The position numbers and the translations under genes were made by a program. 59,049 nucleotides of DNA, taken from the NCBI GenBank assembly GCA_021108405.1, contig JAIOQW010000163.1:1-59049 (forward strand). Direction: 5' to 3'. The notes beneath the pieces were generated by a model. The model had not been told where the DNA came from. It ran no database searches and was given only the letters and a program-made list of their open reading frames with translations. Shown here one piece after another: positions 8,378 to 35,099 of the stretch (within the stretch, counting starts at the first letter, position 1; each line of letters opens with the position of its first letter). Origin of the DNA: Methanosarcinales archaeon. Its GTDB lineage: Archaea > Halobacteriota > Methanosarcinia > Methanosarcinales > Methanocomedenaceae.

Positions 8378-9440
8378 ATTTTACGACCGCAAAAAGGAAA
8401 TCAAAGAGATCATGAACATATTGGACACAGAGCCATCTCTGATCACCTTCATCTACGGACCGATAAACAGCGGCAAGACCACGATGATCAGCCACCTGAT
8501 AGAACAACTACCAGAAGATTATGCTCCTTTTTATATTAATCTTCGGGGTAGATTCATAACAGATTATGAAGATTTCTTAAACGTATTATTCGAGATTGAC
8601 GAAAAAGGCGTGGTCGATAATGTCACTGAGTATGCAAGATCAATATTAAAAGATATGGGAAATGTTAGTGGAATTCCAATACCAGTTAATCTATTTGAAC
8701 AGATCTTTGAAAAAAAAGATAAAAGCAAAGATATGTTTAAATATATGGAACAGTTCTTTGTAGAAATATCAAAAAAACGTACACCAGTCCTGATCATCGA
8801 TGAGTTGCAGGTGGTTGGAGATATAAAAATCGATGGATTTTTAATATACAAATTATTTAATTTTTTTATACGACTTACCAAGGAACTGCATCTATGCCAT
8901 GTTTTTGCAGTTTCTTCTGACTCACTATTTATCGAACAAGTTTACAGCGAGGCGATGCTACAGGGGCGAAGCAGGCATCTGCTGGTGGATGACTTTAATA
9001 AGGAGATAACGATGGATTTTTTGGATGAATATGGATTTACCGATGTGGAAAAAGAACTTGCATGGAACTACTGTGGTGGCAAGCCAATTTATCTGGTTGA
9101 GTTGGTAAATTCAGGAGAAAACCGAAAAAAGAAGGCAGAAGAGATGCTTGGAATGAGGATAGGACAGATTGAAGGACTCATAGAAGATGCCAGGGAATTT
9201 GGATACAGGATATCCTATGGTGATGAGAAAATCATATTGAGCGAGGAGCATATACTTAAAAATTTAGAGAAATTCAGAGACAGGGATTATCTTAAAGCAA
9301 GTGAGCTTTCAAAATCAGTTAAACTCGGTTTGATTAAAGCAAACATACTCTTTCTTGACTCGGTTAAACAAATCATTAAGCCTCAATCACAATTGGATTT
9401 GCTTGCAATACGAGAGGTGATGAAAGATGAAAAGAATTAA
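8364..9440 (+). CDS. MJ-type archaeal ATPase (ATPase_2)
   Basis: FYDRKKE, GPINSGKT, IIDELQ, CGGKP; SD GAGGTGA at 8351. Confidence 0.9.
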   Translation: MKRIEFYDRKKEIKEIMNILDTEPSLITFIYGPINSGKTTMISHLIEQLPEDYAPFYINLRGRFITDYEDFLNVLFEIDEKGVVDNVTEYARSILKDMGNVSGIPIPVNLFEQIFEKKDKSKDMFKYMEQFFVEISKKRTPVLIIDELQVVGDIKIDGFLIYKLFNFFIRLTKELHLCHVFAVSSDSLFIEQVYSEAMLQGRSRHLLVDDFNKEITMDFLDEYGFTDVEKELAWNYCGGKPIYLVELVNSGENRKKKAEEMLGMRIGQIEGLIEDAREFGYRISYGDEKIILSEEHILKNLEKFRDRDYLKASELSKSVKLGLIKANILFLDSVKQIIKPQSQLDLLAIREVMKDEKN

Positions 9441-10476
9441 ATTTCACGACCGCAAAAAGGAAATCAAAGAGATCATGAACATATTGGACACAGAGCCATC
9501 TCTGATCACCTTCATCTACGGACCGATAAACAGTGGAAAGACCACGATGATCAGCCACCTGATAGAACAACTACCAGAGGATTATGCGCCATTCTATATT
9601 AATCTCCGGGGTAGGTTCATAACAGATTATGAAGATTTCCTAAACGTATTATTCGAGATTGACGAAAAAGGTGTGGTTGATAATGTCACTGAGTACGCAA
9701 GATCAATGTTAAATGATCTGGGGACCGTTAGTGGAATTCCAATACCAGTTAATCTATTTGAACAAATCTTTGAAAAAAAGGATAAAAGTAAAGATATGTT
9801 CAAATATATAGAACAATTTTTTACAGAAATATCAAAGAACCGTGTACCTGTCCTGATCATCGATGAGTTGCAGGTAATTGGTGATCTGAAGATCGATGGA
9901 TTGTTGATATATAAATTATTCAACTTTTTCATACGATTGACAAAGGAGTTACATCTCTGTCATATCTTTGCGGTTTCATCAGATTCACTCTTTATCGAGC
10001 AGGTTTATAGTGAGGCGATGTTGCAAGGGCGCAGCCGGCATCTACTGGTCGATGACTTTAATAAGGTCGATACAATGGATTTTCTTAACAAGCATAACTT
10101 CAGCGATAAGGAGAAAGAACTTACATGGAATTGCTGCGGTGGCAAACCAATATGTTTGGTTGAGCTTGCGAATGCAAAAATGAATGGAAAAGATATCGAG
10201 AGCGAGGCTAAAATGTTAGTAAAGATTAGAACTAGCCAGATACTTTCGATATTTGATGAAATATCACTTGGAAAAGTAGAACATTCAGAAAAGGATATAA
10301 TAGAGGAGTTTAAGAATTTTGAAAAAGAAGAGATAATACAATATGCTAGAGTAAATGAAAGAAAAATTTTTTTAGTTGGAAGAAATGTGTTGTTCATTGA
10401 CCCGGTGCAAAGAACAATTAAGCCACAGTCGAAGTTGAACCTGCTCGCAATACGAGAGGTCATAAACAGTGAATAA
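9427..10476 (+). CDS. MJ-type archaeal ATPase (ATPase_2)
   Basis: N-terminal ~210 aa near-identical to 8364-9440; C-terminus resembles 4700-5467. Confidence 0.9.
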   Translation: MKRIKFHDRKKEIKEIMNILDTEPSLITFIYGPINSGKTTMISHLIEQLPEDYAPFYINLRGRFITDYEDFLNVLFEIDEKGVVDNVTEYARSMLNDLGTVSGIPIPVNLFEQIFEKKDKSKDMFKYIEQFFTEISKNRVPVLIIDELQVIGDLKIDGLLIYKLFNFFIRLTKELHLCHIFAVSSDSLFIEQVYSEAMLQGRSRHLLVDDFNKVDTMDFLNKHNFSDKEKELTWNCCGGKPICLVELANAKMNGKDIESEAKMLVKIRTSQILSIFDEISLGKVEHSEKDIIEEFKNFEKEEIIQYARVNERKIFLVGRNVLFIDPVQRTIKPQSKLNLLAIREVINSE

Positions 10477-11833
10477 AATATATCGAATATGGATGGTACC
10501 TTTTAGTATCATAACAATACTACTGATCATATCAATAGCATCCGCAACCGATTCTCCCCTTGATACAGTTCAGGTCTATGCTCTCGGACCAAAAGACACA
10601 GGTTCATCAGTTGAATCTTCAATAATCCTTGAAAAAGACAGCGAATATTGCATCGTGGTCTCTGGCGTCTTCCAGTTTCGAAGAGATGTTGACTGGGGCC
10701 GGGCAGATGCGCAGTTTCGTATGGGCAATGGGGGTGCATATACTTACTCGTTCAACTCGATCGAGTTCAATGGAAAGCGGATGAATGCAGCAATAAGTGA
10801 TGTCGAGAATCACACATACACATTCTATCACACAGGTGATGGTGAAAAGATCAGGTTCAGTATTTATGACTGCATTATCACTCATGAGCGAGGTGGATAC
10901 GATAACAATGCAGGAATGCTCTTAGTTGAGATATATCCACTAACAACACTTTCTGTAACAAAACTACCATCACCGCATACTATCGAGAAAGGAGATACGT
11001 CAACGATAATCGTGACTGTGAAAAACACAGCTCCAAAAGGAATGGGCGAGTTAAAGGATATCGAAGTGACTGATTCCTGTCCTTCGGGTTTCACACTGAT
11101 AAGCGGTGATGTGCATGCGCAGTATCAGGTACTCAAACCAGATGAGTCACGCACACTCCAATATGTCATAAAACCTACTCAGAGCGGTACATTCAACCTT
11201 GAGCCAGCCAGGGTCTTATACTATGATGAGAGTGGAGAAAATCATACTAAAAGATCAGATACTGCAACACTTACAGTTGTATCATCCCCGGGACTGCAAC
11301 CCACAGCACCACCTAACGCAAGTGTGAAATTACACGGCGAGAGGACTGATGTAGGGATCGGAGATGATATTTTACTCAAGCTCTCGGCTGTGAACCTGAT
11401 AACAAAGCCGGTAATGCATGTTCAAATAATTATCATTCCACCGTCCGGAATGAGTGTAGCATCATCAGGTTTTGTTATGTCAGGAGCCGGGCAGTTCACT
11501 TCTGACTATGAAATTGATCCTGGCGTGGGCAGGGACATTGAGGTCAGGATCGTGGCAAACCAGATAGGCAATTATACAGTGGAAGGAAGGGTGATCTATT
11601 ATTTCGAAGATGATGTCGAGAATGCCGAAGACTATACACTACGTTTACCGATCAGGGTAAGGTCTGTCGGTATAGAGTCAACAATAGCCACATCCACACC
11701 CAAACCTACATCCGATGGTCATGGCATAATACCAGGGTTGCCAGGATTTACTGGTGTGATTATGTTGATCGTAGTGATGATTGTAACTGTTTTAATAAGA
11801 GGAAGAAAAAAACAAAAACGAGATCAATTTTAA
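10469..11833 (+). CDS. Surface protein: putative lectin-like N-domain, two Ig-like (BatD/DUF11-like) domains, PGF-CTERM
   Basis: Signal peptide; C-terminal half homologous to 5460-7307; LPGF + TM + basic tail; GTG start. Confidence 0.8.
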   Translation: MNKIYRIWMVPFSIITILLIISIASATDSPLDTVQVYALGPKDTGSSVESSIILEKDSEYCIVVSGVFQFRRDVDWGRADAQFRMGNGGAYTYSFNSIEFNGKRMNAAISDVENHTYTFYHTGDGEKIRFSIYDCIITHERGGYDNNAGMLLVEIYPLTTLSVTKLPSPHTIEKGDTSTIIVTVKNTAPKGMGELKDIEVTDSCPSGFTLISGDVHAQYQVLKPDESRTLQYVIKPTQSGTFNLEPARVLYYDESGENHTKRSDTATLTVVSSPGLQPTAPPNASVKLHGERTDVGIGDDILLKLSAVNLITKPVMHVQIIIIPPSGMSVASSGFVMSGAGQFTSDYEIDPGVGRDIEVRIVANQIGNYTVEGRVIYYFEDDVENAEDYTLRLPIRVRSVGIESTIATSTPKPTSDGHGIIPGLPGFTGVIMLIVVMIVTVLIRGRKKQKRDQF

Positions 11834-11852
11834 TTCATTGGAGGAAGTATAA

Positions 11853-13889
11853 ATGAAATCAGGAATTCAGAAACAAATAAGATCATTTCGGAGTATCCGA
11901 AGAAGTTGTATATGCCTGATCGCACTTGCAATATTTTCAGGGTGTATATGTATACCGGATGCGGCAGCACAAGCCCCAACCACTATCGACTATATTCACA
12001 TCACAACTAATGTGAACAATGGCTATGCTATAACCACTGTGGAAGAGAAACTCACCAATCCCCACGACACTCCGACAGATGATGAGTTCAGGTTCCTGAT
12101 CCCTGATGATGCATTCATCTCAGGTTTTTCTATATTTGTCGATGGAGTTGAATACAAAGCAGATGTTCTCTTAAAAGAAGAGGCAGATGAGCAGTTTGAG
12201 CAGGCAGTTTCAGAAGGAAAGACTGCAGGCCTTCTAAAGGTAAAAAAAGAGAATATATTCTCATATTCACTGAGTTTTACACCTCACCAGAGTATTACTA
12301 TCCGTTTGACATATGAACAACCAATTAAAAAGATACTTGGTGAATATGAATACATTTTATCATTACGAGAAACCGATGTGGCACATCATGTACCTGATCT
12401 TCTGGTAAACATTACAGTGACATCAGTGAATAAGATCAACACACTGGAAACTCCTGGATTTAAAGAGGCAAACGTGAAATACCTCTCCCCTACGAAAGCA
12501 CGGGTCACTTACAGTGCAACGATGCTTCCGGACAGGGACTTAAGAGTTATTTTTACCACTGATAACACATCACTAAATGGAGAGATGCTCTTCTATGAAA
12601 CAGGTGGGCAGGGTTATTTGATGCATGTTTTCTCACCATCGCAGGAGGACCTGGGGACCACGGCTCTTAGTAAAGAGATCATTTTTGTGGTCGATAAGTC
12701 AGGCTCTATGAGAGGTACCAAAATGGTACAGGTTAAACAGGTCTTTACAGGCATTATCACAGACCTTCCACCTGACGACTACTTCAATATTATTTTCTTT
12801 GAGAGTGATGTTATAACGTTTCGGGATTCACTCATGGAAGCAAACACACAGACAAAGGCAGATGCAGCGAACTTTGTTAACATGCTCGGCGCAGGTGGTG
12901 GCACGAATATTAACGAAGCACTGCTTCAAGCAGTAAATATGTTTGAGCCTGATTCGAAGCGTGTACCTATCATTGTTTTTCTCACGGACGGAGAGCCTAC
13001 GAATGGCGTAACATCACCTCATGTGATCAGAGACAACGTAAAAAACGCAAATAAGGCAGATGTTTCTATATTCACTATCGCATTTGGGATCGAGGATGAA
13101 GAAAACTATGATTTTCTAAGAGCGCTAAGTCTTGAGAACTATGGTGTAGCAGAACAGTTCGACCTCCATGAAAATTCTGAGACCGAAATGAACACATTCT
13201 ATAAGACAATATCCACACCTGTAATAACTGATATGGACTGGAGCTATACTGATTCATCTGATATCGTGAATACAGGTTACAATACTCTCTTTACAGGATC
13301 AGATGCCATTATACTTGCCAGATACCAGGCAGGTAAGAACAATATAGATTCAAGTATTGATGCAATTACACGCACAGGCAACCATAGCTTTGATGAGACA
13401 TTTTCTGTTGTTACCAAACAAGAGAACAGCTTTATTCCAAAGCTCTGGGCATATACAAAGATAAGGCGGCTGATGGACAGGATGGTTGTAGTAGGTGAGA
13501 CAGATACAGATGCACTAGTATCCGAGATCACTGATCTTTCTTTGGAGTACGGTTTTGTCACTCCATACACATCACTATTTGTGGAAGTACCTGTCTTTGA
13601 AAAGATTAGCACAACAGCCACTGAAACTGACATACCGGTAATGTCAGAAGCGGTACCCGATTCAGCCACTGGTGATAAAACCACTTATAATTCAGCCCCC
13701 AGTCATGGAATGGATCAAACAGGAGAAGCTATGGACTGGGATTCCAGACCAATCGACCAGGAAGTTTCTCCTGCAGAAGCAGTTCCTGATGCAGCACCAA
13801 CAGAACAAGAACCAGGCTTTAGCGCTTTCTTAGCAACTACAGGGATTGTCGCTATTGCATATCTGATGAGAATAAACAGAAAAATTTGA
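11853..13889 (+). CDS. VIT + vWA domain protein (inter-alpha-trypsin inhibitor-like) with PGF-CTERM
   Basis: VIT (IPDDAFISGF, ITIRLTYEQ), MIDAS DKSGSM..GGTNI..LTDG, FVTPYTSL, EPGF + TM + RK. Confidence 0.9.
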   Translation: MKSGIQKQIRSFRSIRRSCICLIALAIFSGCICIPDAAAQAPTTIDYIHITTNVNNGYAITTVEEKLTNPHDTPTDDEFRFLIPDDAFISGFSIFVDGVEYKADVLLKEEADEQFEQAVSEGKTAGLLKVKKENIFSYSLSFTPHQSITIRLTYEQPIKKILGEYEYILSLRETDVAHHVPDLLVNITVTSVNKINTLETPGFKEANVKYLSPTKARVTYSATMLPDRDLRVIFTTDNTSLNGEMLFYETGGQGYLMHVFSPSQEDLGTTALSKEIIFVVDKSGSMRGTKMVQVKQVFTGIITDLPPDDYFNIIFFESDVITFRDSLMEANTQTKADAANFVNMLGAGGGTNINEALLQAVNMFEPDSKRVPIIVFLTDGEPTNGVTSPHVIRDNVKNANKADVSIFTIAFGIEDEENYDFLRALSLENYGVAEQFDLHENSETEMNTFYKTISTPVITDMDWSYTDSSDIVNTGYNTLFTGSDAIILARYQAGKNNIDSSIDAITRTGNHSFDETFSVVTKQENSFIPKLWAYTKIRRLMDRMVVVGETDTDALVSEITDLSLEYGFVTPYTSLFVEVPVFEKISTTATETDIPVMSEAVPDSATGDKTTYNSAPSHGMDQTGEAMDWDSRPIDQEVSPAEAVPDAAPTEQEPGFSAFLATTGIVAIAYLMRINRKI

Positions 13890-13924
13890 GTGATAATAGC
13901 AGAATCTGGCAGGAGAGAAACAGC

Positions 13925-14992
13925 ATGAGACATATAGAATTTCATGATAGGGAAAAAGAGATAACAGAGATAATGAGGTTACTCAACACAGATCCATCCC
14001 TGATTACCTTTATTTATGGACCGATAAATAGCGGAAAGACTGAACTGATCACCCATTTGACTAAACAACTACCAGAGAACTATGTTGTTTTTTATATAAA
14101 TCTTCGAGGGAAGTTCATATCAAGTTACGATGACTTTGTAAGGGCTTTATTCAAATTGGATCGCGAAGAGAAGGAATATAAAGCAATATTAAAAAAGATA
14201 TCGGAAGTATCGATAAAAAGTCTGAAGTATACTGGAATACCCATAACTGAAGACATTCTGGAATTATTTTTTAGAGAAAGAAATTATGAAGACGTTTTTG
14301 AGTTTCTAGAAGATTATTTTACCGAAATAGCAGAAAATAAAGTTCCTGTGTTGATAGTGGATGAACTGCAGAAAATTGGAGATGTTAAGATTAATTCATT
14401 TCTGATTTACGAACTCTTCAATCTGTTTATTCGGTTGACAAAAGAGTTACATCTCTGCCACGTCTTTGCGGTTTCATCAGATTCGATCTTCATTGAAAAT
14501 GTCTACAGTGAAGCGATGCTTGAGGGTAGATGTAGGTATCTACTGGTGGATGATTTTGATGAGGAGACCACTACCGCATTTTTAGATAATTATGAATTTA
14601 GCGATGATGAGAAGACGGTTGCCTGGAAATACTGCGGTGGCAAACCGATATGTCTGGTTGAACTCGTGAATATACCAGATGATCGAAAAAACAAGGCAAA
14701 GGAGATGCTCAAGATAAGAAAGGGGCAAATAGAAGAGGTTGTGTATTCGCTTGAAGCGAGGGATAAGAAGATGTTTGACATGATAACAAGAATACTTTTT
14801 GAATTTATCGAGAAGGATAAGGTCGGATACAAATATCTAAACGATGAAATTAAGTTTCTGGTCGGGAAAAACATTATTTTTGCAGATTCAGTAAATAAAG
14901 AATTGAGACCACAATCCAGGTTAAATCTACTTGCTATACGGGAAGTGATGTTATCGATAACTACAACACTGGAATCCACATCTCATCAATAA
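13925..14992 (+). CDS. MJ-type archaeal ATPase (ATPase_2)
   Basis: MRHIEFHDRE start by alignment with paralogs; GPINSGKT, IVDELQ, CGGKP. Confidence 0.9.
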   Translation: MRHIEFHDREKEITEIMRLLNTDPSLITFIYGPINSGKTELITHLTKQLPENYVVFYINLRGKFISSYDDFVRALFKLDREEKEYKAILKKISEVSIKSLKYTGIPITEDILELFFRERNYEDVFEFLEDYFTEIAENKVPVLIVDELQKIGDVKINSFLIYELFNLFIRLTKELHLCHVFAVSSDSIFIENVYSEAMLEGRCRYLLVDDFDEETTTAFLDNYEFSDDEKTVAWKYCGGKPICLVELVNIPDDRKNKAKEMLKIRKGQIEEVVYSLEARDKKMFDMITRILFEFIEKDKVGYKYLNDEIKFLVGKNIIFADSVNKELRPQSRLNLLAIREVMLSITTTLESTSHQ

Positions 14993-15033
14993 AAGGCAAT
15001 TGTTTTATAATTTATAAACAAACCTAATCTATT

Positions 15034-15297
15034 ATGTTCAATTTAGAGTTATGTATCAGATTTCTGATTGGACTTTTCTTCCTCTATGCATGCATATATG
15101 CGGTCAGGTCCGTCAAAATCGATTACTGGAAGCAGTGCTGGTATGTTATCCTACTTGGAAGTATAATCCATATGACCTATATCATAGCTGCTTTTATGGA
15201 ATTTACTTATGCAGGCCATTTAAGAAATCTTGGAATGGGAATTGTGGCGATCGGGATCATAATGGTTGCAAGACGTACTAAAGATATTTTAAGATGA
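15034..15297 (+). CDS. Small three-TM membrane protein
   Basis: 87 aa with three hydrophobic stretches. Confidence 0.6.
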   Translation: MFNLELCIRFLIGLFFLYACIYAVRSVKIDYWKQCWYVILLGSIIHMTYIIAAFMEFTYAGHLRNLGMGIVAIGIIMVARRTKDILR

Positions 15298-15313
15298 TCG
15301 AATAACCATATGA

Positions 15314-16003
15314 TCAAATAATAATGATCCCTTCATCAGTGATCTTGTAATTGGCACTTATATGATCACATCCCATCATCGCTTCAACAGTTATCTTTTT
15401 ACCGTCCATATGCACAATATTATCTACCGTTGCCTTTAACATAGTCTCTATCTGTGAATCTACCACTCCTTCCGTATAGGTGATTATACCTGTACTTCCA
15501 GCCAATTTTATCCTCATAGTATATGATTTAAGTACCCGGATCATAAGTATTGGTGAATTATAGGCAAAAAGGGTAGTTGCAGAATCAAGGATCGATCTGA
15601 ATGTATGTGTTTTTTGGAAGATGGACTGTAGTTCTTCAATAATCTCACTGATGATCTCAGTTGGATTCTGCGGTGAAGAGATCTTGAATGAAGCAGTCTC
15701 TTTTTGTACAGACCCGATTGACCCTGATGCAATATCCATTACATAAAGCTGCTTTTTAGTAAAATAGTCATGAATAAACCATTTGAAGTACATCATTGTC
15801 TCTTCAAGCTGTGGAAGATTATAATCTGTCATTATATAAAGGCAGTATTCATCGTCAGTTATTGCCTGGTGCAGGAACTGGTAACAAAATATGGACTTAC
15901 CTGTCTTTGGTGGCCCGTATACCAATGTAATAGTATTATTAGGGAATCCACCGCCAATTAATTCATCAAGACCTGCGATCCCTGATCTGGTAGATTGTAT
16001 CAT
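15314..16003 (-). CDS. KaiC/RAD55-like RecA-fold ATPase
   Basis: SGIAGLDELIGGGFP, Walker A GPPKTGKS, ILDS Walker B. Confidence 0.9.
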   Translation of the reverse strand: MIQSTRSGIAGLDELIGGGFPNNTITLVYGPPKTGKSIFCYQFLHQAITDDEYCLYIMTDYNLPQLEETMMYFKWFIHDYFTKKQLYVMDIASGSIGSVQKETASFKISSPQNPTEIISEIIEELQSIFQKTHTFRSILDSATTLFAYNSPILMIRVLKSYTMRIKLAGSTGIITYTEGVVDSQIETMLKATVDNIVHMDGKKITVEAMMGCDHISANYKITDEGIIII

Positions 16004-16011
16004 TTTTGTTA

Positions 16012-17196
16012 TTATACTCTGTATATAAGATCAAAAAGCGCATTAAGCGTCTGATTGATCCCCTTATTTTTCTTTACTGAAACTGGCACTATATGTACAT
16101 CTTCCCATAATGCCATACGTTTTTTTATCTCCTCCGGCCGCATAGCACCAGAGAGGTCCTGCTTATTAGCAACAATTATCTTTGGTATTACCTCTGCCCG
16201 GCACATATTTATCATTTCCTTTGCACGGGCAAAGGTATTTGGTTGGGTTGAGTCAATTACAATAAAGGCACCGATCGCTTCTCTTGCCAGCGGCTCAAGT
16301 AATAGATCAAACCGTTCCTGACCAGGTGTGCCAAAAATATCAGCAGAAAATCCCTTGTAATCAACATGTCCGATATCAAGTCCAACCGTAGTTGGAAATA
16401 GTTCATATGCCTGCCTTTCTACCGAGACAGCATCCTGGGAGATCGCATGAACAAATGCTGTCTTTCCTGCATTGTAGGGTCCGGTTACTAACAGCTTTGG
16501 AATAAATACTTTAACTCCTCCGGGCATTACCAGTTCGAAAAACGTTTTAGTCCTGGATATTGTACTCCAACTGGACTTTACCACTACATAGACCTGTCTG
16601 TACATCACTCTTTCTTCTATACCGAAAAGTTCTATCTCACAGTTGAACAGATCTATCAGTTGTTCTATCATCCGGTCCTCATAATCCCATCTGGTAAATA
16701 TATATATCATATTGACATCGTGCTTGTTAGCAGCTTCATTCCATGTTTTGATCAATTCCATTGTGTTATTTGCACCAATAGAATCAATTAATGTGGCTAC
16801 ATTTTCGATCACTGCCGTACCACCGGCAATGTCGTTGATCGCACATAATACGGTATCTTTACTTTTATTAAAATCATCAATGCAGTATTTACCGATCGGT
16901 GGTACTCCCATCATAGGGGAGATGGAATCAACAAAGAATAACTGGCCTGACTGCAGAGGTGTCATAATATCCCATCCGTATTTGTCAAATACCCGCGAAA
17001 TCTCAGCAGGTGTACGGGTATTAGTATATATAAATCCGATCTCTTTATTATTGCGTATACGCTGGGCAATGATCTGATAACCGAAAATATCACATAGCAT
17101 ACCTGGTATTGCATTGAATAATACTGATGTTCCAGGTGGTGTACCCCCTTTCAGGATATCATCCAGTCGCGGAATATAGGTTTTTTTCATATCCAT
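16012..17196 (-). CDS. Fusion of degenerate KaiC-like domain and MglA/CvnD-like small GTPase
   Basis: N-term IPRLDDILKGGTP with broken P-loop (AIPGMLCD); C-term G1 GPYNAGKT, G2 PTTVGLD, G3 GTPGQERF, G4 NKQD. Confidence 0.85.
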   Translation of the reverse strand: MDMKKTYIPRLDDILKGGTPPGTSVLFNAIPGMLCDIFGYQIIAQRIRNNKEIGFIYTNTRTPAEISRVFDKYGWDIMTPLQSGQLFFVDSISPMMGVPPIGKYCIDDFNKSKDTVLCAINDIAGGTAVIENVATLIDSIGANNTMELIKTWNEAANKHDVNMIYIFTRWDYEDRMIEQLIDLFNCEIELFGIEERVMYRQVYVVVKSSWSTISRTKTFFELVMPGGVKVFIPKLLVTGPYNAGKTAFVHAISQDAVSVERQAYELFPTTVGLDIGHVDYKGFSADIFGTPGQERFDLLLEPLAREAIGAFIVIDSTQPNTFARAKEMINMCRAEVIPKIIVANKQDLSGAMRPEEIKKRMALWEDVHIVPVSVKKNKGINQTLNALFDLIYRV

Positions 17197-17200
17197 TATC

Positions 17201-17578
17201 CTATACCTCTTCCAGTATCTCCTGAACCTGTTTGGCCCTTATCTCGATCTCGACTGTGATCAGACCAAGCTGGGCTTCTACCTGCGCCAGTGCAAAGAAT
17301 AGTGCCTTTTCTCCCGAAGGCTTTAACAATAATACACCGTGTTCGGTCTTTACATTAACCTCTGCTACTTCTCCGGTTCCCATTTGCGAACTTGCTGTCT
17401 GGGCACTTGCTATAATTGTTGAGCATAGCGCACCGACAATGCGTTCATTCATATCAGGCGGCATTATTGATGTGATCAGCAGTCCTTCAGTACTCACTAT
17501 CCCTGCAGCGCTTACCTGTCCTACCTGCATAAATTTGGCCAGTACCTGATCCAGCTTTTCTTTTTTAGTTTGCACCAT
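17201..17578 (-). CDS. Roadblock/LC7 (MglB-like) protein
   Basis: AAGIVSTEGLLITS..VGALCSTI..AQLGLI; start MVQTK after SD AGGTGA. Confidence 0.9.
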   Translation of the reverse strand: MVQTKKEKLDQVLAKFMQVGQVSAAGIVSTEGLLITSIMPPDMNERIVGALCSTIIASAQTASSQMGTGEVAEVNVKTEHGVLLLKPSGEKALFFALAQVEAQLGLITVEIEIRAKQVQEILEEV

Positions 17579-17582
17579 ACTC

Positions 17583-20549
17583 TCACCTATTATCATTACT
17601 ATCCTCTGTAATTAATATCGTATATCTTAACCCTTCCTCCAGGGATCGTTCTGCAGTGACAGGATCTAACACAACTCCAAGACCAGACAATCTATCCACT
17701 GTTTCAGGTTTAATACCTGCTATAATACATGTTGCATCAAGTAGCTTTGCATATCGTGCAATGTTGATCAGAGGATTCAATGTTTCAATATCTTGTTCTA
17801 TTCCTGTAATATCAAGAATGACAGCTTTTGTTTTAATGTCAGATACCTCTTCTAATATAGTTACCATCAGACTATTAACGCGGCCCGTATATGCCTCAAG
17901 CCTCTTGATGGTTTCCTGCAGTTCATGCTTTGATCTTTTTCGCTCGGTAATGTCGCGAGCAGCTGCAAATACCCCAACAATCTCTCCAGCTTCATCTTTA
18001 TAGACCGATGCATTATAGGCCACAATAGTTTCGGTTCCATCCTTAGCTTTCATGATCAGTTCATAATCCCTGATTTCTTTGGTCTCAAAGACCAGCTCTA
18101 CAGCTTTGTTTGCCTTTTCAGGGTCTGTGAAATAATCAGCGAATGGTGTTCTTATCAACTCTTCCCTGCTTCTGCCAGTAGCTTTAATTGTAGCCTCGTT
18201 CACATCCAGAATAATACCTTTCTTGTCAAAGGTTACAAGAGGATCTGGGTTTACCTCAATTAATTCCCGATTGTAGAGCTGAAGATCCTGTATTTCCTTT
18301 TTAGCACGCTTGAGCCCGGTGATATCTTTAAAATCCTCTACAATCCCTAAGAATTTGCCGTTTCGATCAAATCTTGCAGCATTCAGAATAATAGGTATCT
18401 CTTTACCGTCCGGTCGGATCTTGATAGATTCTCGCTCAACAAACTCTTCTCCTTTTTTTATCATCTCGAGTGGACATTCTTTAGTATGGCAGCATTCCCC
18501 GCTAAAGATATCGTAGCATTTCTTACCGATGATTTCATCCTCATCCATGCCCACCAATCTGATAAAGGTTTTATTCACCTTGATGATGTTAAAATCAGCA
18601 TCTATTACACACATTGCATTGGCAGCGATCTGGAAGATGAGGTCGAGTTCTGCTTTACTTTCACTTAGTGCAATTTCAGCATTTTTTCGCTCGGTGATGT
18701 CGCGAGCAGCGGCAAAAGCTCCGACTATCTGTCCGGTCTCATCTTTATAGACCGACGCGTTATAAGCAACAATGATTTCGTTTCCATCCCTGGCTTTCAT
18801 GACCAGCTCATAATTCCAAAACTCCCCTATTCCAAAGACCAGGTCCACACCTTTTTGTGCCTTTTCAGGGTCTGTGAAATAATCAGCGAATGGTGTTCCT
18901 ATCAACTCTTCCCTGCTTGTGCCGGTAGCTTTAATTGTAGCCTCGTTCACATCCAGAATAATACCTTTCTTGTCAAAGGTTACAAGAGGATCGAGGTTTA
19001 TCTCAATTAATCCCCGATAGTAGCGCTGAAGATCCTGTATTTCCTTTTCAGCACGCTTGAGCCCGGTGATATCTTTAAAATCCTCTACAATTCCTACAAA
19101 TTTGCCATTTCTATCAAATCTTGCAGCACTCAGAATAATAGGTATCTCTTTACCGTCCGGTCGCTTCTTGACAGATTCACGTTCAATAAATTCTTCTCCC
19201 TTTTTTATCATCTCGAGTGGACAATCTTTAGTATGGCAGAATTCCCCGCTAAAGATATCATAGCATTTCTTACCAATGATTTCATCTTCATTCATGCCCA
19301 CCAATCTTATAAAGGTTTTATTCACCCTAATGATGTTAAAATCAGCATCTATTACACACATTGCATCAGCAGCGATCCGGAAGATGAGGTCGAGTTCTGC
19401 TCTACTTTCACACAGTGCAATTTCAGCATTTTTTCGCTCGGTAATGTCACGGGCAGCGGCAAAAGCACCTGCCACCTGTCCATTTTGATCCCTGTAAACA
19501 GAAGCATTGTATGAAACGATAGTCTCGGTACCATCCCTGGCTTTCATGACCAGCTCACAATTCCGAACCTCTCCAGTCCCAAAGACCAGCATCGCACCTT
19601 TGTGTGCCCTTTCGGGATCAGTGAAATAATCAGCAAATAGTGTTCCTATCAACTCTTCCCGAGTTCTGCCTGTAGCTTTAATTGTAGCCTCGTTTACATC
19701 CTGAATGATCCCTTTATAATTGAATGTTACCAGTGGATCAAGGCTTGTTTCGATCAAGCCTCGATTATAACGCTGAAGATTGTGAATTTCCATATCTGTA
19801 CGCTTTCGCTCAGTAATATCACGGGCGGCAGCAAAAGCACCAATAATCTTTCCACTCTGATCTCTATAGACCGAAGCATTATATGAGACTGTGATCTCTG
19901 TTCCATCCTTTGTTTTCATAACCAGTTCATAATCCCTGACCTCTCCGGTTTCAAAGACCAGGTTCACACCTTTATGTGCCTTTTCAGGGTGTAAGAAATA
20001 ATCAGCGAATGGTGTTCCTATCAACTCTTCCCTGTTTCGACCTATGGCTTTGACTGTTGCCTCATTCACATCCATAATAATTCCATTTTGATCGAATGTT
20101 ACCAGTGGATCGAGGCTTGTCTCGATCAAGCCTCGATTATAACGCTGAAGATTGTGAATTTCCATATCTTTCCGCTTTTGCTCAGTAATATCGCGGGCGG
20201 CAGCAAAGGCACCAATAATCTTTCCACTCTGGTCTCTATGGACCGAAGCATTATATGAGACTGTGATCTCTGTTCCATCCTTTGTTTTCATGACCAGCTC
20301 ATAATCCCTGACCTCTCCGGTTTCAAAGACCAGATTCACACCTTTGTGTGCCCTTTTAGGATCAGTGAAATAATCAGTGAATGGTGTTTTTATCAACTCT
20401 TCCCTGCTTCTGCCTGTGGCTTTGACTGTTGCCTCATTCACGTCCATAATAATTCCATTCTGATCGAATGTTACCAGTGGATCGAGGCTAATTAATTGTA
20501 GCTCTTTTTCTATATACCTAAGAGGCGATTTATTTATTATGTTATTCAT
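17583..20549 (-). CDS. Soluble sensor with seven PAS/PAC domains and a C-terminal RsbR-like (N-truncated) STAS domain
   Basis: Seven repeats ending in DIT; C-term AVILDITGI..AKLLDATCIIAGIKPETV..LGV..SLEEGL; likely ATG at 20549. Confidence 0.85.
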   Translation of the reverse strand: MNNIINKSPLRYIEKELQLISLDPLVTFDQNGIIMDVNEATVKATGRSREELIKTPFTDYFTDPKRAHKGVNLVFETGEVRDYELVMKTKDGTEITVSYNASVHRDQSGKIIGAFAAARDITEQKRKDMEIHNLQRYNRGLIETSLDPLVTFDQNGIIMDVNEATVKAIGRNREELIGTPFADYFLHPEKAHKGVNLVFETGEVRDYELVMKTKDGTEITVSYNASVYRDQSGKIIGAFAAARDITERKRTDMEIHNLQRYNRGLIETSLDPLVTFNYKGIIQDVNEATIKATGRTREELIGTLFADYFTDPERAHKGAMLVFGTGEVRNCELVMKARDGTETIVSYNASVYRDQNGQVAGAFAAARDITERKNAEIALCESRAELDLIFRIAADAMCVIDADFNIIRVNKTFIRLVGMNEDEIIGKKCYDIFSGEFCHTKDCPLEMIKKGEEFIERESVKKRPDGKEIPIILSAARFDRNGKFVGIVEDFKDITGLKRAEKEIQDLQRYYRGLIEINLDPLVTFDKKGIILDVNEATIKATGTSREELIGTPFADYFTDPEKAQKGVDLVFGIGEFWNYELVMKARDGNEIIVAYNASVYKDETGQIVGAFAAARDITERKNAEIALSESKAELDLIFQIAANAMCVIDADFNIIKVNKTFIRLVGMDEDEIIGKKCYDIFSGECCHTKECPLEMIKKGEEFVERESIKIRPDGKEIPIILNAARFDRNGKFLGIVEDFKDITGLKRAKKEIQDLQLYNRELIEVNPDPLVTFDKKGIILDVNEATIKATGRSREELIRTPFADYFTDPEKANKAVELVFETKEIRDYELIMKAKDGTETIVAYNASVYKDEAGEIVGVFAAARDITERKRSKHELQETIKRLEAYTGRVNSLMVTILEEVSDIKTKAVILDITGIEQDIETLNPLINIARYAKLLDATCIIAGIKPETVDRLSGLGVVLDPVTAERSLEEGLRYTILITEDSNDNR

Positions 20550-21090
20550 GTGATAACTTCCAGAGAAATAAAATAAATACAAATTTTTTAGTGATTTATT
20601 GGATAAAGTTATTAATTATATAGTTTTGTTTTCATCTTTTAAAAACCCAACTATAAAGTAAAATATCATATGGCTGGAAATTAAAAATATTAACGTCTGT
20701 TTGGAGTTTTTGGACCATCTGTGAGACTTTTTATTATTTTCTGGAGGATCAACAGCCAGCCGTGTGATACTGCACCGTAAAAAACGTAAAGTGTACCTGT
20801 TCAGCTTTAAATATCCCTGCCATTCTGACTCCAGATTTGAACATTGAATAACTTCAATTTGCAAATAATAACATCAAACTAAAACGAACTGAAACGAACT
20901 CTTTGACCAGAAAAAATAAAAAAGTATCCCATCTGTATGGGAAATGATTATATCTACAAAAATTATATATATACCCTCTCATAATATTATACTAACAAAT
21001 AGATGGTTTTGCAGGAGATCATTTATTACATTAATGAAAAAATCTTACGGTTGGTAGGTTTTCAAGTATAAAATCATACTTAATACACTG

Positions 21091-21345
21091 TAGAACAAAA
21101 TCCTTCCTTCGGTCAGATTTTCTTGACTGAGGCTCTTAAAAGAGCCGAAGATTAGAAGATTCGTAAAATCTTCACCTGAGGCTCTTAAAAGAGCCGAAGA
21201 TTAGAAGATTCGTAAAATCTTCACCTGAGGCTCTTAAAAGAGCCGAAGATTAGAAGATTCGTAAAATCTTCACCTGAGGCTCTTAAAAGAGCCGAAGATT
21301 AGAAAATACAAAGTATTTTCGATTCAAGTTAGACTTGATGTACTA
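21091..21345. repeat. Long GAACAAAATCC modular element containing a 49-bp tandem array (3.6 copies, 21127-21304)
   Basis: Unit CTGAGGCTCTTAAAAGAGCCGAAGATTAGAAGATTCGTAAAATCTTCAC at 21127, 21176, 21225, partial at 21274; no spacers. Confidence 0.95.
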
Positions 21346-21356
21346 TAAAAATATGG

Positions 21357-23342
21357 TTGGAGAGTTGTTATAATATGGTTGATATCAATTACTATAAAGT
21401 TAAAATATATGGATACTGGAATTGTTTGAGTGGAAATAAGGTTTTACTGTTATTTATCTTTATTATTTCTACTCTATTAGTGTTACCTATACTGGCTTTA
21501 GGTGAAATAGAAGTCCTTGAGGTTGATGAATATGAATTTATTGGTTTTGTACAAAATATACATCCAGGTCATGCCCCATATGTCATATTTTCGTTAACTT
21601 CATCAACATACCCGGGTATCCTGTATTATGACTTCCGGACTGGAGATGGTTATGAATCCCTGGACTTTATTGTAGATACTGCCAATCGCCAGATAAAGGG
21701 TATGGATAATTTCACCTATTCAACATCGATCTATAATAAAGATGGTGAAGATTTTATTGCATGGCTCGGTGACCCCTATTTTGTCATAGAAGCTGGTAGT
21801 GATTGGTATCTGGCCCAAATGCTGGTGAATGAAGACGAAGACGATACCCATCTACTGGAATTAGGTGAGAGCTTGTTACTGGAAGAAGGTATTGCAATAA
21901 CCCCACTTGAAATAGATACTAATGATAATAAAGTATGTTTTAGTGTTACAAAGGACGGTGAAGAATTAGATAATTCAACTATCAAGGAAGGAGAGATATT
22001 CACCTACAAGAAAGACCTTAACGAAAGCGGTTATAATGATAACTGGATATTAAGGTTTAATGTGGATGTAGTATTCGAAGGTATGAATACAAATCTTGTC
22101 AAGATTAACAATACGCAACTGATATCAAATGACATAATTAAAATCGAAACACCGGATAATGATATGTTCAGCGGATTTGAGATAACGTCAATAAATAGTG
22201 ATACAACTCTTCAGATCAGATTTGATAATGCTGATGATAATATTTCCCTGATAAAGAACCAAACAGTCGGTTTCATAGGAGACACATTCAATTTCAAGAT
22301 CAATGAAGACGGAGATATCGGCGGACTTGTTGTAATGATTACTGAACCTGGTATTCATGAAATTTTTGCAGAAGTCTGTAATTTATCACCAGGGGTTTAT
22401 TCTTATTTCTATCTGACTTCAGTCAACAATCCAGGTATCCTGTATTATGACTTAGATGAAGGAGTTGGCAGTGAGGTTTTGGACATTACAGTTAGCAATG
22501 ATGATCTCGAGATTGCCAAAGGTAATTTCACATATAATACTACTGCCTATAAAGACGAGAATAATAATAATATGATTGCATGGCTCGGTAAACCATATAG
22601 TGTCGTAAGTAAATGCGGTGATTGGTATTTCAGTGAACTACTTATAGATGATGGTGATGATGATTTTCATCTATTAGAAATCGGCGAGGCACTGACTCTA
22701 AAAGAAGGTTATACTGTAATTCCACAGGAGATTGATGTTGACGGTGAAGAGGCATGGTTTGATATTGTAAAGAATGGTGATGTAATAGACAGTTCAGTTC
22801 AATGTGAAGGGTCTCAGTACATATACGAAGAAGATTTGAACGAAAGCGGGAGCACAGATAACTGGGTAATAAAGTTTAATGTAGAAACTGTTATTGCAGG
22901 GACGAATACCAACACAGTCAAGATCAATCACACAAGTCAGATTTCATCAGATGTTGTTAAAGCCGAAGATGGAGATAAGGATCTATTCGATGGCTTTATA
23001 ATCAAAACATACGATATTGCTCCTGGAAAAATTGAGATAGTGATTGATGGAAGTGATGATGAGATCAAACTGAAGAAAGGCGGAACTGTCAGTTTACTTG
23101 GTGATAGGTTCAACTTCAAAGTCAATGAAAACGGAGATATCGGCGGTATATTAAAGATAGTAAGCATAAATGAATCCTGGAGAGATAGGTGGATGGGTAA
23201 TGGTTCGGAAGGGGGATCGAAAGTTACCACAACAGAGCTTCAGGATGCTATTCACCACTGGTTAGAGGATATCAGGATAAGTGAACATTTGCTTTCCACA
23301 GCAGACCTTCGGGAGGTTATTGCAATATGGCTTTTTGAATAA
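21357..23342 (+). CDS. Methanosarcinales S-layer (DUF1608 x2)-like protein with novel C-terminal tag; start uncertain
   Basis: Two repeats YYD..G.E.L, IAWLG.PY, L.LGE.L.L.EG, EID.D, KDLNESG; acidic. Confidence 0.8.
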   Translation: MESCYNMVDINYYKVKIYGYWNCLSGNKVLLLFIFIISTLLVLPILALGEIEVLEVDEYEFIGFVQNIHPGHAPYVIFSLTSSTYPGILYYDFRTGDGYESLDFIVDTANRQIKGMDNFTYSTSIYNKDGEDFIAWLGDPYFVIEAGSDWYLAQMLVNEDEDDTHLLELGESLLLEEGIAITPLEIDTNDNKVCFSVTKDGEELDNSTIKEGEIFTYKKDLNESGYNDNWILRFNVDVVFEGMNTNLVKINNTQLISNDIIKIETPDNDMFSGFEITSINSDTTLQIRFDNADDNISLIKNQTVGFIGDTFNFKINEDGDIGGLVVMITEPGIHEIFAEVCNLSPGVYSYFYLTSVNNPGILYYDLDEGVGSEVLDITVSNDDLEIAKGNFTYNTTAYKDENNNNMIAWLGKPYSVVSKCGDWYFSELLIDDGDDDFHLLEIGEALTLKEGYTVIPQEIDVDGEEAWFDIVKNGDVIDSSVQCEGSQYIYEEDLNESGSTDNWVIKFNVETVIAGTNTNTVKINHTSQISSDVVKAEDGDKDLFDGFIIKTYDIAPGKIEIVIDGSDDEIKLKKGGTVSLLGDRFNFKVNENGDIGGILKIVSINESWRDRWMGNGSEGGSKVTTTELQDAIHHWLEDIRISEHLLSTADLREVIAIWLFE

Positions 23343-25747: not shown

Positions 25748-26446
25748 ATGGAACGAATATCCACAGGCATCATCGAGCTTGATGCCAAATTAGACGGGGG
25801 TTATCCCGAGGGCAAAGTAATACTGGTCACAGGTACACCAGGGGCAGGAAAATCTATATTCGGGCTGCACTTCCTGTATAAAGCCTGCCAGGACGGGAAA
25901 AAATGCAATTTGATCGCTACGGAAGAGCCTCCTGATGATATCTTCATCCAGGCTGAGATGCTCGGGCTAAATCTAAGACCCTATGTCGATAATAAACAGC
26001 TTGAAGTAGAGCGTATATTTGAGTCCAGAACAGAGACTACCAAACAGGCTGACCAGTATGGGTATGGATTTGAAGGTACGCAGGAAAATATACTTGATAA
26101 GGTAAAATCAGTTCCTGATGATACTGATGTAGTAGTAATAGATAATATAGGTGTATTTGCACTGAACTTGAGTGTAAAGGAATTCAGGGACCAGATAGAT
26201 ACCATAAACAGTGTACTCGTTAAAAAAGGCATATCAACTCTCATTGTCATGGATGAGACCGCTTATGAGATAACTCATAGACTTGCCGAATATTCGGTAT
26301 ACGGTTCTTTGAGGCTTATGATGAAGGAGAATCCTTATACAGGTAAGCGTGAGCGGTATATTGATATCCCGAAGATGCGCTGTACTGACATTTCACTTGA
26401 TCTGTTTGTGTTTGACATAACATCCGAAGGGATCAAACTCAAATAG
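25748..26446 (+). CDS. KaiC/RAD55-like ATPase (pilus-associated)
   Basis: ISTGIIELD..GGYP, GTPGAGKS, TEE, VVIDN, KMR. Confidence 0.9.
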   Translation: MERISTGIIELDAKLDGGYPEGKVILVTGTPGAGKSIFGLHFLYKACQDGKKCNLIATEEPPDDIFIQAEMLGLNLRPYVDNKQLEVERIFESRTETTKQADQYGYGFEGTQENILDKVKSVPDDTDVVVIDNIGVFALNLSVKEFRDQIDTINSVLVKKGISTLIVMDETAYEITHRLAEYSVYGSLRLMMKENPYTGKRERYIDIPKMRCTDISLDLFVFDITSEGIKLK

Positions 26447-26490
26447 ACCAATATAATCCTCGCTGACGCTCAAAAAGGGGGAGAAGGAAA

Positions 26491-27204
26491 ATAGAGCGAA
26501 TATCAACAGGAATAGAAAATCTGGATGAAAAACTTAGTGGAGGTTATCCTAAAAACAGGGGTATACTGGTAACAGGAGTATCAGGTGCAGGCAAGACTAT
26601 TCTCGGACTTCACTTTCTTCATAGATCATGCACTGAAGGTAAACATTGTGTACTTATTGCAACAGAAGAGTTGCCTGAAGATATCCTCTACCAGGCAGAA
26701 ATACTGGGACTTGATCTTGCCGAATATTATAACAGCAAACAGTTAATTATTGAAAGAATGTTTGAAAGTAGGTCACAAAAAGCGGACCATGTGACAAAAT
26801 ACGGTTTTAAGCTGGAAGGACTTGATATTGAACTGCCGTCTCTTTTGAATTTTATTCCTGATGATACGGATATTGTGATTATCGACAATATCGGAGTATT
26901 AATTTTAGGCCTTTCAATTCAGGATTTCAAGAACCAGTTTGATGCATTAAATTATGTTTTCTCCAAAAGAGGCTGCACACCCATGTTTATTATGGATGAT
27001 GTTGCATATAAAATGACAAATCAAGTAGCCGATTATTCGGTATTCAGCCTGATCAAGCTTCTGGTAAAAGAAAATCCTTATACAGGTAAATTAGAGCGTT
27101 ATATGAGTATTCCTAAAATACGCAGTACTAATATCGCACCTGATCTGATGGTGTTTGATATTATGTCCAGGGGGATAAGATTTCGAAGACCACATCTTGA
27201 ATAA
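26491..27204 (+). CDS. Second KaiC/RAD55-like ATPase, ATA start
   Basis: Frame extends 60 codons upstream of the called ORF: (I/M)ERISTGIENLDEKLSGGYP..GVSGAGKT, colinear with the paralog; in-frame TGA at 26464 upstream. Confidence 0.85.
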   Translation: MERISTGIENLDEKLSGGYPKNRGILVTGVSGAGKTILGLHFLHRSCTEGKHCVLIATEELPEDILYQAEILGLDLAEYYNSKQLIIERMFESRSQKADHVTKYGFKLEGLDIELPSLLNFIPDDTDIVIIDNIGVLILGLSIQDFKNQFDALNYVFSKRGCTPMFIMDDVAYKMTNQVADYSVFSLIKLLVKENPYTGKLERYMSIPKIRSTNIAPDLMVFDIMSRGIRFRRPHLE

Positions 27205-27218
27205 GGGGGTTAGATTCA

Positions 27219-28877: not shown

Positions 28878-28892
28878 TTAAAGGGTTGGACC

Positions 28893-30881: not shown

Positions 30882-30893
30882 AAAATTATAATT

Positions 30894-34037: not shown

Positions 34038-34158
34038 TTAGGTGGGAGTAGATGCTAATGATTCGAAATACCACAATGATCAGTCAGTCAATGGCACTAT
34101 TTGAACAACAAATATCAGTAGTTTTACCCTTATATCTTAACAGGAAGTATAGTATATC

Positions 34159-35067: not shown

Positions 35068-35099
35068 CTGACATTTCTATAAAATTCAAGAGATATCTT

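Follow-up and report, generated by a model that had tools for sequence, protein, structure and literature searches.

How might an archaeon connect a sensory protein to a small GTPase and to KaiC-like ATPases with no histidine kinase in between? This question is raised by a four-gene operon in a stretch of DNA of 59,049 nucleotides (nt), here called the window (GenBank assembly GCA_021108405.1, contig JAIOQW010000163.1, positions 1 to 59,049). The host is a metagenome-assembled genome of a Methanosarcinales archaeon of the anaerobic methanotrophic ANME-2 type, an assembly of 3.67 Mb in 363 contigs. How archaea transduce signals is poorly understood. KaiC-like ATPases have been put forward as hubs of the process, and pairs of Roadblock proteins and small GTPases as ancestors of eukaryotic G-protein regulation. 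The operon encodes a sensor, a Roadblock protein, an inactivated KaiC domain (iKaiC) fused to a GTPase, and an intact KaiC. The reading that we consider probable is a switch resembling MglA/MglB that would be built into a hetero-oligomer of KaiC and iKaiC, with the PAS-STAS sensor as the input used in ANME-2a/b.

The operon (15314..20582, minus strand) comprises by open reading frame (ORF) calls four genes, A to D, and the minus strand of this stretch holds these four ORFs and no other notable feature. Gene A (17583..20549) encodes seven PAS units, a coiled linker and a C-terminal STAS domain (Pfam and profile search), gene B (17201..17596) an MglB-like Roadblock/LC7 protein (Pfam), gene C (16012..17196) the iKaiC::GTPase fusion of 394 amino acids (aa; Pfam), and gene D (15314..16003) a single-domain KaiC-family ATPase of 229 aa (PF06745). 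A preliminary description, made from the sequence alone, had proposed these four domain compositions and a tight coupling of the genes. Pfam and the STAS profile uphold all of the former, and the spacing confirms the latter: 4 nt separate B from C and 8 nt separate C from D, while A and B overlap by 14 nt, which becomes a 4-nt gap if gene B begins at Met7 (17578), the position at which its 125-aa orthologues begin. A TTG at 20582 would give gene A 999 aa; the alternative ATG at 20549, which coincides with the end first proposed for the element, is the likelier start. The arrangement is far beyond chance, since it is seen again in dozens of genomes.

The fusion encoded by gene C has two parts. 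Its N-terminal domain (16501..17196, minus strand; residues 5-231) matches the KaiC family PF06745 with 50.4 bits against a cut-off of 26.6, and the position of Walker A reads NAIPGMLCD, without GK[ST]. When the window protein is aligned with 78 related fusions of full length (79 sequences in all), this position is PG[VIML]xx[D/E/H]xFG throughout and GK[ST] in none; pattern matches to Walker A in six rows were chance hits on an upstream GGGxPxG, and the aligned column has none. The position of the catalytic Glu reads T-N or S-N in the listed patterns (74 of the 79 sequences), and the Walker B position is N or E, never D, in those covering 65 of the 79. The P-loop-dead KaiC domain that had been proposed is thus a property of all 79 family members and, because the loss of the motifs is uniform across the family, the sequences indicate an inactivation that is old and fixed rather than decay. 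The KaiC fold itself is retained. In an AlphaFold2 (AF2) model of the fusion, built from 81 sequences (pLDDT 89.2, pTM 0.84) and consistent with a fixed arrangement of the iKaiC and G domains, the best fold match of the iKaiC part is PH0284 (2dr3_A), with a TM-score of 0.87 on the target and an rmsd of 2.3 Å over 231 columns. A fold search with the whole fusion listed only KaiC-type rows, with no structural neighbour of the G domain among them.

The C-terminal part of the fusion (16012..16500, minus strand; matched by Pfam as an Arf/Ras-type GTPase on residues 234-391) is a small GTPase of the type of MglA groups 2-5, with the motifs GPYNAGKT (G1), PTT (G2), GTPGQ (G3) and NKQD (G4). The P-loop GxxxxGK[ST] of G1 and the GTPGQ of G3 are both present in each of the 78 related full-length fusions, and PTT occurs in every listed G2 pattern (70 of 79 sequences). 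The available part of a survey of MglA proteins gives GTPGQ in G3, and a Thr-Thr that replaces the Arg finger in G2, as the marks of groups 2-5, and places the GTPase CvnD of the actinobacterial conservon in them (PMC4316618). The G domain of gene C carries the G1, GTPGQ and Thr-Thr marks and has a coupled Roadblock gene. In that same part, the survey covers single-domain GTPases and describes archaeal group 4 as lacking conserved neighbours (PMC4316618); the G domain here occupies residues 233-394 of a 394-aa fusion and is not a single-domain protein.

Gene B matches Robl_LC7 (PF03259) with 57 bits against a cut-off of 23 (E = 1.7e-15), its best solved relatives are Robl_LC7/Roadblock-LC7 proteins (7f8m_A, E = 6.6e-15; 9jue_D, 1.9e-13), and the conservon protein CvnB5 (3leq) matches at E = 1.1e-3. 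Among 72 sequences, at least 90% conserve the Roadblock motif VS.EGLLI.

Gene D encodes the live KaiC, the predicted ring partner of iKaiC. It matches PF06745 with 104 bits (cut-off 26.6; E = 9.3e-30), its Walker A, GPPKTGKS, is intact, and its profile finds KaiC (E = 5.6e-31) and PH0284 (3.2e-27) among solved structures. GPPKTGKS or a close variant occurs in 71 of 74 downstream KaiC genes at related loci and GPAKTGKT in one (L074); the pattern search gave no match in the remaining two of the 74 (L030 and L036). The position of the catalytic Glu reads T59-D60 and is nearly invariant in 70 sequences. The KaiC family forms the core of the cyanobacterial clock, and a KaiC-based timer or hourglass, in which the GTPase would read the phosphorylation phase of KaiC, might therefore come to mind, the more so as the KaiC D profile matches clock KaiC at an E-value of about 1e-28. 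We regard such a timer as very improbable: gene D is a single domain of 229 aa, unlike a bona fide circadian KaiC; no member of the KaiA or KaiB families was found in the operon or in the scanned neighbours, the rest of the genome not having been searched for KaiB; and the sequencing-run records name marine sediment and cold seep as habitat.

The co-assembly of the dead KaiC domain with the adjacent live KaiC, as suggested in the preliminary description, is supported by complex prediction. With the full fusion (alignment of 81 sequences) and KaiC D (alignment of 70) as the scored partner, three runs gave ipSAE values of 0.74, 0.77 and 0.75, against 0.02 for the best of three controls. Of 80 solved complexes, 58 attain the ipSAE mark applied, as do 2 of 110 mismatched pairs; these rates are approximate where our own alignments are used. 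The runs have at least 93% of their contacts in common, with a partner pLDDT of 90. The named contacts of the fusion all lie in iKaiC, at residues 29-36 (the dead P-loop), 60-68, 92-96, 132-139 (the Walker B region), 168-172 (an invariant F-T-x-W-x-Y) and 194-199. Those of KaiC D lie at residues 97-133 and 148-169, including the invariant N113, P114, T115, L153, R156 and V157; the named contacts do not include its own P-loop (30-37), an absence that is no evidence that this loop is free. As modelled, this is the ordinary RecA/KaiC ring interface, with the trans-acting face of KaiC D placed over the dead pocket. An SSP motif in the interface segment is common to the partner KaiCs of this cassette and of a paralogous cassette described below; the KaiC of a pilus locus in the window does not have it.

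The genes B, C and D recur as a unit. A scan of 185,579 species genomes yielded 367 stretches that encode a relative of the fusion, of which the best 80 were analysed. They come from ANME-2a/b (Methanocomedens-type), ANME-2c (Methanogaster-type), Methanocellales, Thermoplasmata/Methanomassiliicoccales, Methanomicrobiales and many Methanobacteriaceae, and 78 of them have a full-length fusion, L038 and L076 being cut at contig ends. A Roadblock gene lies -46 to +7 nt upstream of the fusion in 72 of these 78 loci and about 1 kb upstream in two; it was not found in four, two of which start at contig starts (L037, L047) and two of which are unexplained (L095, L100). A KaiC gene lies directly downstream of the fusion in 74 of the 78, and the other four end less than 700 nt past the fusion. 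A second KaiC gene follows the first in 37 loci, almost all from Methanobacteriaceae.

What lies upstream of Roadblock varies by lineage. PAS-STAS genes are found there, directly upstream, in all ten ANME-2a/b loci with upstream sequence (L027-L029, L031-L036, L038), three of which have two such genes; the ANME-2a/b loci L030, L037 and L039, whose sequence begins too late to show what lies upstream, were left out of this count. In 23 ANME-2c-type loci, one or two small Cys-rich proteins take the place of PAS-STAS, and 14 of these loci also have a true V4R gene farther upstream. The two Cys-rich families, which lie directly upstream of Roadblock (loci L040-L061, L065 and L073), are unrelated to each other, measure about 150 and 165 aa, have mean column identities of 78% and 89%, and match no Pfam or NCBIfam family. 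Kinship with V4R was considered and rejected, with hhalign probabilities of 0.4% and 0.1% against the V4R neighbour and 2% between the two families. Two Methanobacterium loci encode PAS-only proteins 22 nt upstream of Roadblock; a STAS domain suspected in a Methanobacterium PAS neighbour (L083) was dismissed, as hhalign aligned just the end of a PAS domain. At a further Methanobacteriaceae locus (L077, 2141-4324), a histidine kinase with three PAS units, HisKA_2 and HATPase_c lies 340 nt upstream of Roadblock, the fusion and two KaiC genes, a layout that by its gene content is conservon-like. At most Methanobacteriaceae loci nothing recognisable was found upstream of Roadblock with the queries used. 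The preliminary description had named a lack of conservation of PAS-STAS beside Roadblock and GTPase as grounds for its refutation; within ANME-2a/b there is no such lack, and PAS-STAS does not belong to the core conserved across lineages. Because the genes directly upstream of Roadblock change with the lineage, the gene content points to a fixed three-gene processing core with swappable, lineage-specific inputs, to which PAS-STAS is an add-on.

The PAS-STAS protein itself, the product of gene A, has seven PAS stretches (PAS_9, E = 3.8e-107). Pfam finds no HisKA, HATPase_c, REC or DNA-binding domain in it, in keeping with the earlier description of a sensor without a kinase. Its N-terminal PAS units form a tandem array with a 372-nt period (19432-20489; 2.8 copies, 85% matches), which is a recent tandem expansion, and the number of PAS units varies widely among orthologues, complete-looking genes ranging from 421 to 1234 aa. 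Cysteines spaced as C-x9-C-x4-C occur in two of the PAS units, CYDIFSGEFCHTKDC and CYDIFSGECCHTKEC. Of 17 orthologous PAS-STAS ORFs that were examined, 11 show this motif too; the six that do not are mostly short or truncated at a contig end.

The C-terminal domain (17601..17876, minus strand) is more elusive by standard means: the Pfam STAS score stays below the cut-off of 22.6 bits both in the window (15.3 bits, E = 0.017) and in two orthologues (20.3 and 16.2). A profile of six orthologous gene A C-termini (A1) searched against the sequences of the Protein Data Bank (PDB), in contrast, matches 17 STAS chains of RsbR, RsbS and YtvA with E-values from 3.6e-13 to 1.5e-6, among them 7o0i_B (3.6e-13), 2vy9_A (2.4e-9), RsbR of 6qcm (3.6e-9), YtvA 2mwg (7.4e-8) and RsbS 6qcm_A (5.7e-7). 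Since these are solved stressosome STAS domains, the profile evidence identifies the domain as STAS, specifically of the RsbR/RsbS type. A structural route to the same call was abandoned: an AF2 model of the C-terminal 139 aa from six sequences was poor (pLDDT 61.8), Foldseek found no PDB match for it at E <= 0.001, and the weak rows were STAS-bearing SLC26 transporters (probability 0.25-0.77). The motif D-I-[S/T]-G has its Ser or Thr in all orthologues of two alignments (6 of 6 and 13 of 13). The aligned residue of 2vy9, an RsbS homologue from Moorella, is the DIS serine, which we take to be a phospho-acceptor.

These features invite the alternative of partner switching as in a stressosome. 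STAS-mediated oligomers of PAS-STAS would be phosphorylated on DI[S/T]G by KaiC in place of RsbT, and the G protein would be released or captured as the output. The RsbR/RsbS/YtvA character of the STAS domain and the retained acceptor residue agree with it, as does the A1 profile search of the genome, which found three such STAS domains, all on PAS proteins, and no stand-alone RsbS; the consulted part of one account also has KaiC-family proteins autophosphorylating on Ser/Thr (PMC4858521). We nevertheless consider partner switching quite unlikely. PAS-STAS is missing from most lineages that carry the core and so cannot be its general substrate, the two other PAS-STAS paralogues of the genome have different neighbours, and frames of the HATPase_c_2 type are present elsewhere in the genome. 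One paralogue (contig C107, 7046-10015; L107) has 989 aa and seven PAS units, the other (contig C115, 8529-9794; L108) 421 aa and two, and neither adjoins a Roadblock gene. Downstream of the latter come two genes (442 and 288 aa) without a Pfam family.

Beyond the 80 loci, the fusion has a broad range. A clustered protein collection holds 1053 relatives at E <= 1e-3; of the best 120, 119 have both the KaiC and the small-GTPase Pfam families, and the names of these 120 are generic only ('GTP-binding protein' and 'ATPase domain-containing protein', for example). Among named homologues, the nearest are labelled 'ANME-2 cluster archaeon' and 'Methanosarcinales archaeon'. Full-length orthologues with at least 64% identity are present in 16 of 20 genomes of the family to which the window belongs and in five of five genomes of a second family; the four genomes without one are 97%, 80%, 65% and 57% complete. 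When 401 genomes were sampled evenly from the phylum, 52 of them had a full-length match at E <= 1e-50, as did 23 of 122 genera, and one well-sampled family, with mostly complete genomes, has none among 52. As far as sequence matches can tell, the module is old and widespread across methanogen lineages, yet patchy.

Many genomes carry two paralogous cassettes. In the six further loci of the second kind, the order is KaiC, fusion, Roadblock throughout, and the fusions are 36-41% identical. The copy in the window's own genome (contig C37, 1680-4750; L022) consists of a KaiC with the Walker A GPPMSGKE, an iKaiC::GTPase and a Roadblock gene; a YhbY/CRM-domain gene and then archease come after it, and TruD lies upstream. 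A YhbY/CRM gene follows Roadblock in five of the six loci, with S19e next in one and archease in another. This setting would suit a housekeeping pair of NTPases for assembly or quality control in some constitutive task, for instance ribosome or envelope biogenesis, to which sensors were occasionally added, rather than an environmental signalling system. Vertical conservation of the core over several methanogen orders, the lack of a visible output domain and the fact that the queries used revealed no sensor at most Methanobacteriaceae loci fit such a role as well. A housekeeping role is harder to reconcile with the patchy distribution described above, with the recruitment of four different kinds of sensor-like gene directly upstream of Roadblock and with the presence of two paralogous cassettes in many genomes, and we judge it unlikely.

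RNA libraries bear on the expression of the operon in a close relative. Contigs about 93% identical to the operon stretch, from four metatranscriptome runs of two studies, cover all four genes. One of them (X18 record 10, 15335-18176) bridges the D/C, C/B and B/A junctions, and two more bridge junctions (X17 record 3, 16357-18295; X20 record 27, 16697-17630). They are compatible with expression of the operon as one unit in this relative. One RNA-library contig skips 151 nt within gene A (18533-18685), which may be repeat collapse or strain variation. A TATA-like box, CTATATAATTAA, noticed by eye at 20612..20623 on the minus strand, about 65 nt upstream of the ATG at 20549, is a possible archaeal promoter. 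The intergenic bins 20564-20991 have zero cover in all four RNA runs, which is not evidence of a transcript end.

How might the parts work together? The operon would encode a cytoplasmic switch that links two modules driven by nucleotides, one of them through a KaiC domain which has probably lost canonical nucleotide binding. The steps of binding and catalysis that we infer go beyond the domain identities, motif states, gene linkage and predicted interface from which they are drawn. The live KaiC would place its conserved trans-acting face, which includes the NPT motif and Arg156, against the degenerate P-loop pocket of iKaiC. The product would be a heterodimer that forms independently of nucleotide, or a mixed ring with GTPase domains on display. 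Whether the G domain holds GTP or GDP would be set by a Roadblock dimer, in the way in which MglB acts on MglA. The nucleotide state could then be passed through the rigidly attached iKaiC to ATP binding, hydrolysis or autophosphorylation in the KaiC partner, or the signal could run in the reverse direction. In ANME-2a/b the protein with seven PAS units would be the input; its PAS units with the Cys motif hint that it senses redox state or a metal or other ligand, and the STAS domain of stressosome type would probably dock as an output module onto Roadblock or KaiC. The output of the system would be exerted by protein-protein contact.

Several points weigh against this proposal. Because Asp (D60), not Glu, stands at the catalytic position of KaiC D, its ATPase is perhaps weak. 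KaiC homo-hexamers are solved structures, and the score of the predicted complex may reflect likeness to them rather than specificity of the pair. Columns with at least 90% conservation show no enrichment at the interface, where they account for 9 of 29 and 9 of 27 residues (hypergeometric p of 0.24 and 0.36). By sequence, the solved structures that best match the G domain are Arf-like and Rab proteins (E = 2e-9), with no MglA among the 60 matches listed, and no output domain or target is visible. The RNA-library contigs, finally, do not prove a single transcript, as such libraries can hold DNA, and they come from the relative with about 93% identity, not from the strain of the window.

In a variant that we think rather doubtful, the GTPase cycle set by Roadblock would gate an ATP-driven KaiC (auto)kinase within the mixed ring, a hybrid of G-protein and KaiC signalling that methanogens and ANME would share and that would replace a two-component phosphorelay; in ANME-2a/b, KaiC would phosphorylate the DI[S/T]G of STAS. 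If true, this would make a KaiC-family protein a trans-acting protein kinase; we know of no established case in which a KaiC-like ATPase phosphorylates another protein in trans.

The neighbourhood of the operon raises a further possibility. About 5-7 kb away, on the plus strand, lies a pilus locus (25748-35549) with a KaiC, a KaiC fragment, PilB, TadC and pilins, and the preliminary description had suggested that the operon might act on it. A dedicated regulator of type IV pili or adhesion, acting on the PilB/TadC machine and its KaiC, would have parallels. Portions of two published accounts report that the type IV pilus motors of Myxococcus are under the control of MglA and SofG (PMC4316618), and that KaiC-family and Roadblock (arCOG02603) genes are often found in archaeal type IV pilus loci (PMC4858521). 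At one Methanocellales locus (L062), a PilB 58% identical to that of the window and a canonical KaiC lie directly upstream of Roadblock, fusion and KaiC. That locus is alone: the 5-kb flanks of the remaining 79 loci showed no PilB, TadC, pilin, S-layer or GDSL gene. The pilus genes of the window lie on the strand opposite to the operon, beyond an S-layer gene (21357) and a GDSL gene. In two other genera (G007, G002), a search of 16-22 kb to each side of the operon found no homologue of any of these five kinds of gene, and neither did one of the 11 kb upstream of it in a sister species (G001). Synteny thus lends the suggestion little support and does not indicate a pilus output; that the operon is a pilus regulator is, in our estimate, distinctly improbable.

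Of the two KaiC-like frames in the pilus locus, the first (25748-26446) is complete. The second, of 177 aa (26671-27204, plus strand), begins 225 nt past it and just before PilB, matches positions 60-226 of the KaiC profile and has no Walker A; it may be a truncated or mis-started second KaiC.

Closer to the operon, a membrane protein of 87 aa with three hydrophobic segments (15034..15297, plus strand) is convergent with gene D, with 16 nt between the stops. It stands beside KaiC D in 12 ANME-2a/b loci, with 63-86% identity and the invariant segments YWKQCWY and RNLGMGIV, matches no Pfam or PADLOC family and was not found at one locus of another genus (G002); it could be a membrane anchor or a partner of the system. 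A defence system was considered and set aside, with no PADLOC match for genes B, C and D or the 87-aa ORF and a 20-bit chance match for gene A. Rfam has no match in 14900-21500, and a tRNA search of the window found none.

Some observations concern the wider surroundings. Upstream of the S-layer gene at 21357 lies a perfect 49-nt tandem repeat (21127-21304; 3.6 copies, 100% matches), each unit of which has two short hairpins, GGCTCTTAAAAGAGCC and GAAGATTCGTAAAATCTTC, and no Rfam family. In two RNA libraries, depth is by far greatest in the bins 20992-21400, at 8847 and 3299, while the operon has 10-200. On the other side, the plus strand of 4700-14992 holds five paralogous PF01637 'archaeal ATPase' genes with an MJ1010-like C-terminal domain, interleaved with DUF2341, BatD/DUF11-like and VIT-VWA proteins.

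The switch proposed here, in which an MglA/MglB-like pair is built into a KaiC/iKaiC hetero-oligomer, is open to experiment. Its carriers are methane-producing and methane-oxidising archaea, which are of climate relevance, and they include cultured Methanobacteriaceae (Methanothermobacter, Methanobacterium), which makes the proposed cross-talk between GTP and ATP testable biochemically and possibly genetically.

Among the closest known systems is MglA/MglB of Myxococcus xanthus and Thermus thermophilus. In both cases a Roadblock-fold regulator is encoded next to an MglA-family GTPase whose G3 lacks the usual Asp, and one G domain is the expected target of a Roadblock dimer. Unlike MglA of group 1, with its intrinsic Arg finger, the G domain of the operon is of the GTPGQ/TT type of groups 2-5; it is moreover fused to iKaiC, and a live KaiC is an obligatory neighbour. 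The actinobacterial conservon, CvnA-CvnB-CvnC-CvnD, resembles the operon in having four genes with the sensor first, then a Roadblock protein (CvnB) and a GTPGQ-type GTPase (CvnD), which is the presumed output, with no response regulator. In contrast to CvnA, the sensor of the operon lacks HisKA, HATPase_c and a membrane part and ends in STAS. CvnC (DUF742) is missing, genes B and C being 4 nt apart with no ORF between them and Pfam showing no such family in the operon, and iKaiC and KaiC are added. The statement in the preliminary description that such a core normally comes with a histidine kinase applies to the actinobacterial conservon and not, according to the available part of the MglA survey, to MglAB in general (PMC4316618). 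The operon would work like MglAB and the conservon, yet it is a member of neither as defined, because its GTPase is not a single-domain protein and it has neither a CvnA-type kinase nor CvnC.

With the stressosome proteins RsbR/RsbS and the LOV-STAS protein YtvA, the operon shares a sensor with N-terminal sensory units (PAS in YtvA) and a C-terminal STAS domain of the RsbR type in which the Ser/Thr is kept. It differs in the seven PAS units of gene A, in having neither a stand-alone RsbS nor an RsbT kinase in the operon (the A1 profile found no stand-alone RsbS in the genome either), and in its neighbours, Roadblock, GTPase and KaiC; a coupling of a stressosome-type STAS sensor to a component besides RsbT would be rare. 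PH0284 of Pyrococcus horikoshii (2dr3) is a KaiC-like ATPase of the RecA superfamily, the top structural match of iKaiC and a strong profile match of KaiC D; it is a stand-alone, homo-oligomeric ATPase, in contrast to a pair in which one partner has no P-loop and carries a GTPase.

Finally, Makarova, Galperin and Koonin are said to have described archaeal KaiC-like ATPases in 2017 as 'signal transduction hubs', inactivated KaiC domains included. As in these hubs, and as with ArlH and CirA, the operon has a single-domain KaiC ATPase and an iKaiC combined with other domains, there sensory or output domains. The concept of iKaiC is already in print (PMC5847659). The literature searched holds no description of a KaiC-GTPase fusion with Roadblock; the 2017 work, which lay outside that search, may list one. 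What sets the operon apart from the known hubs is that its iKaiC is fused to a GTPase of the Ras superfamily and paired with a Roadblock protein. The operon fits the idea of the KaiC hub, and it joins that idea with the one of Roadblock/GTPase regulation in one compact, conserved set of genes.

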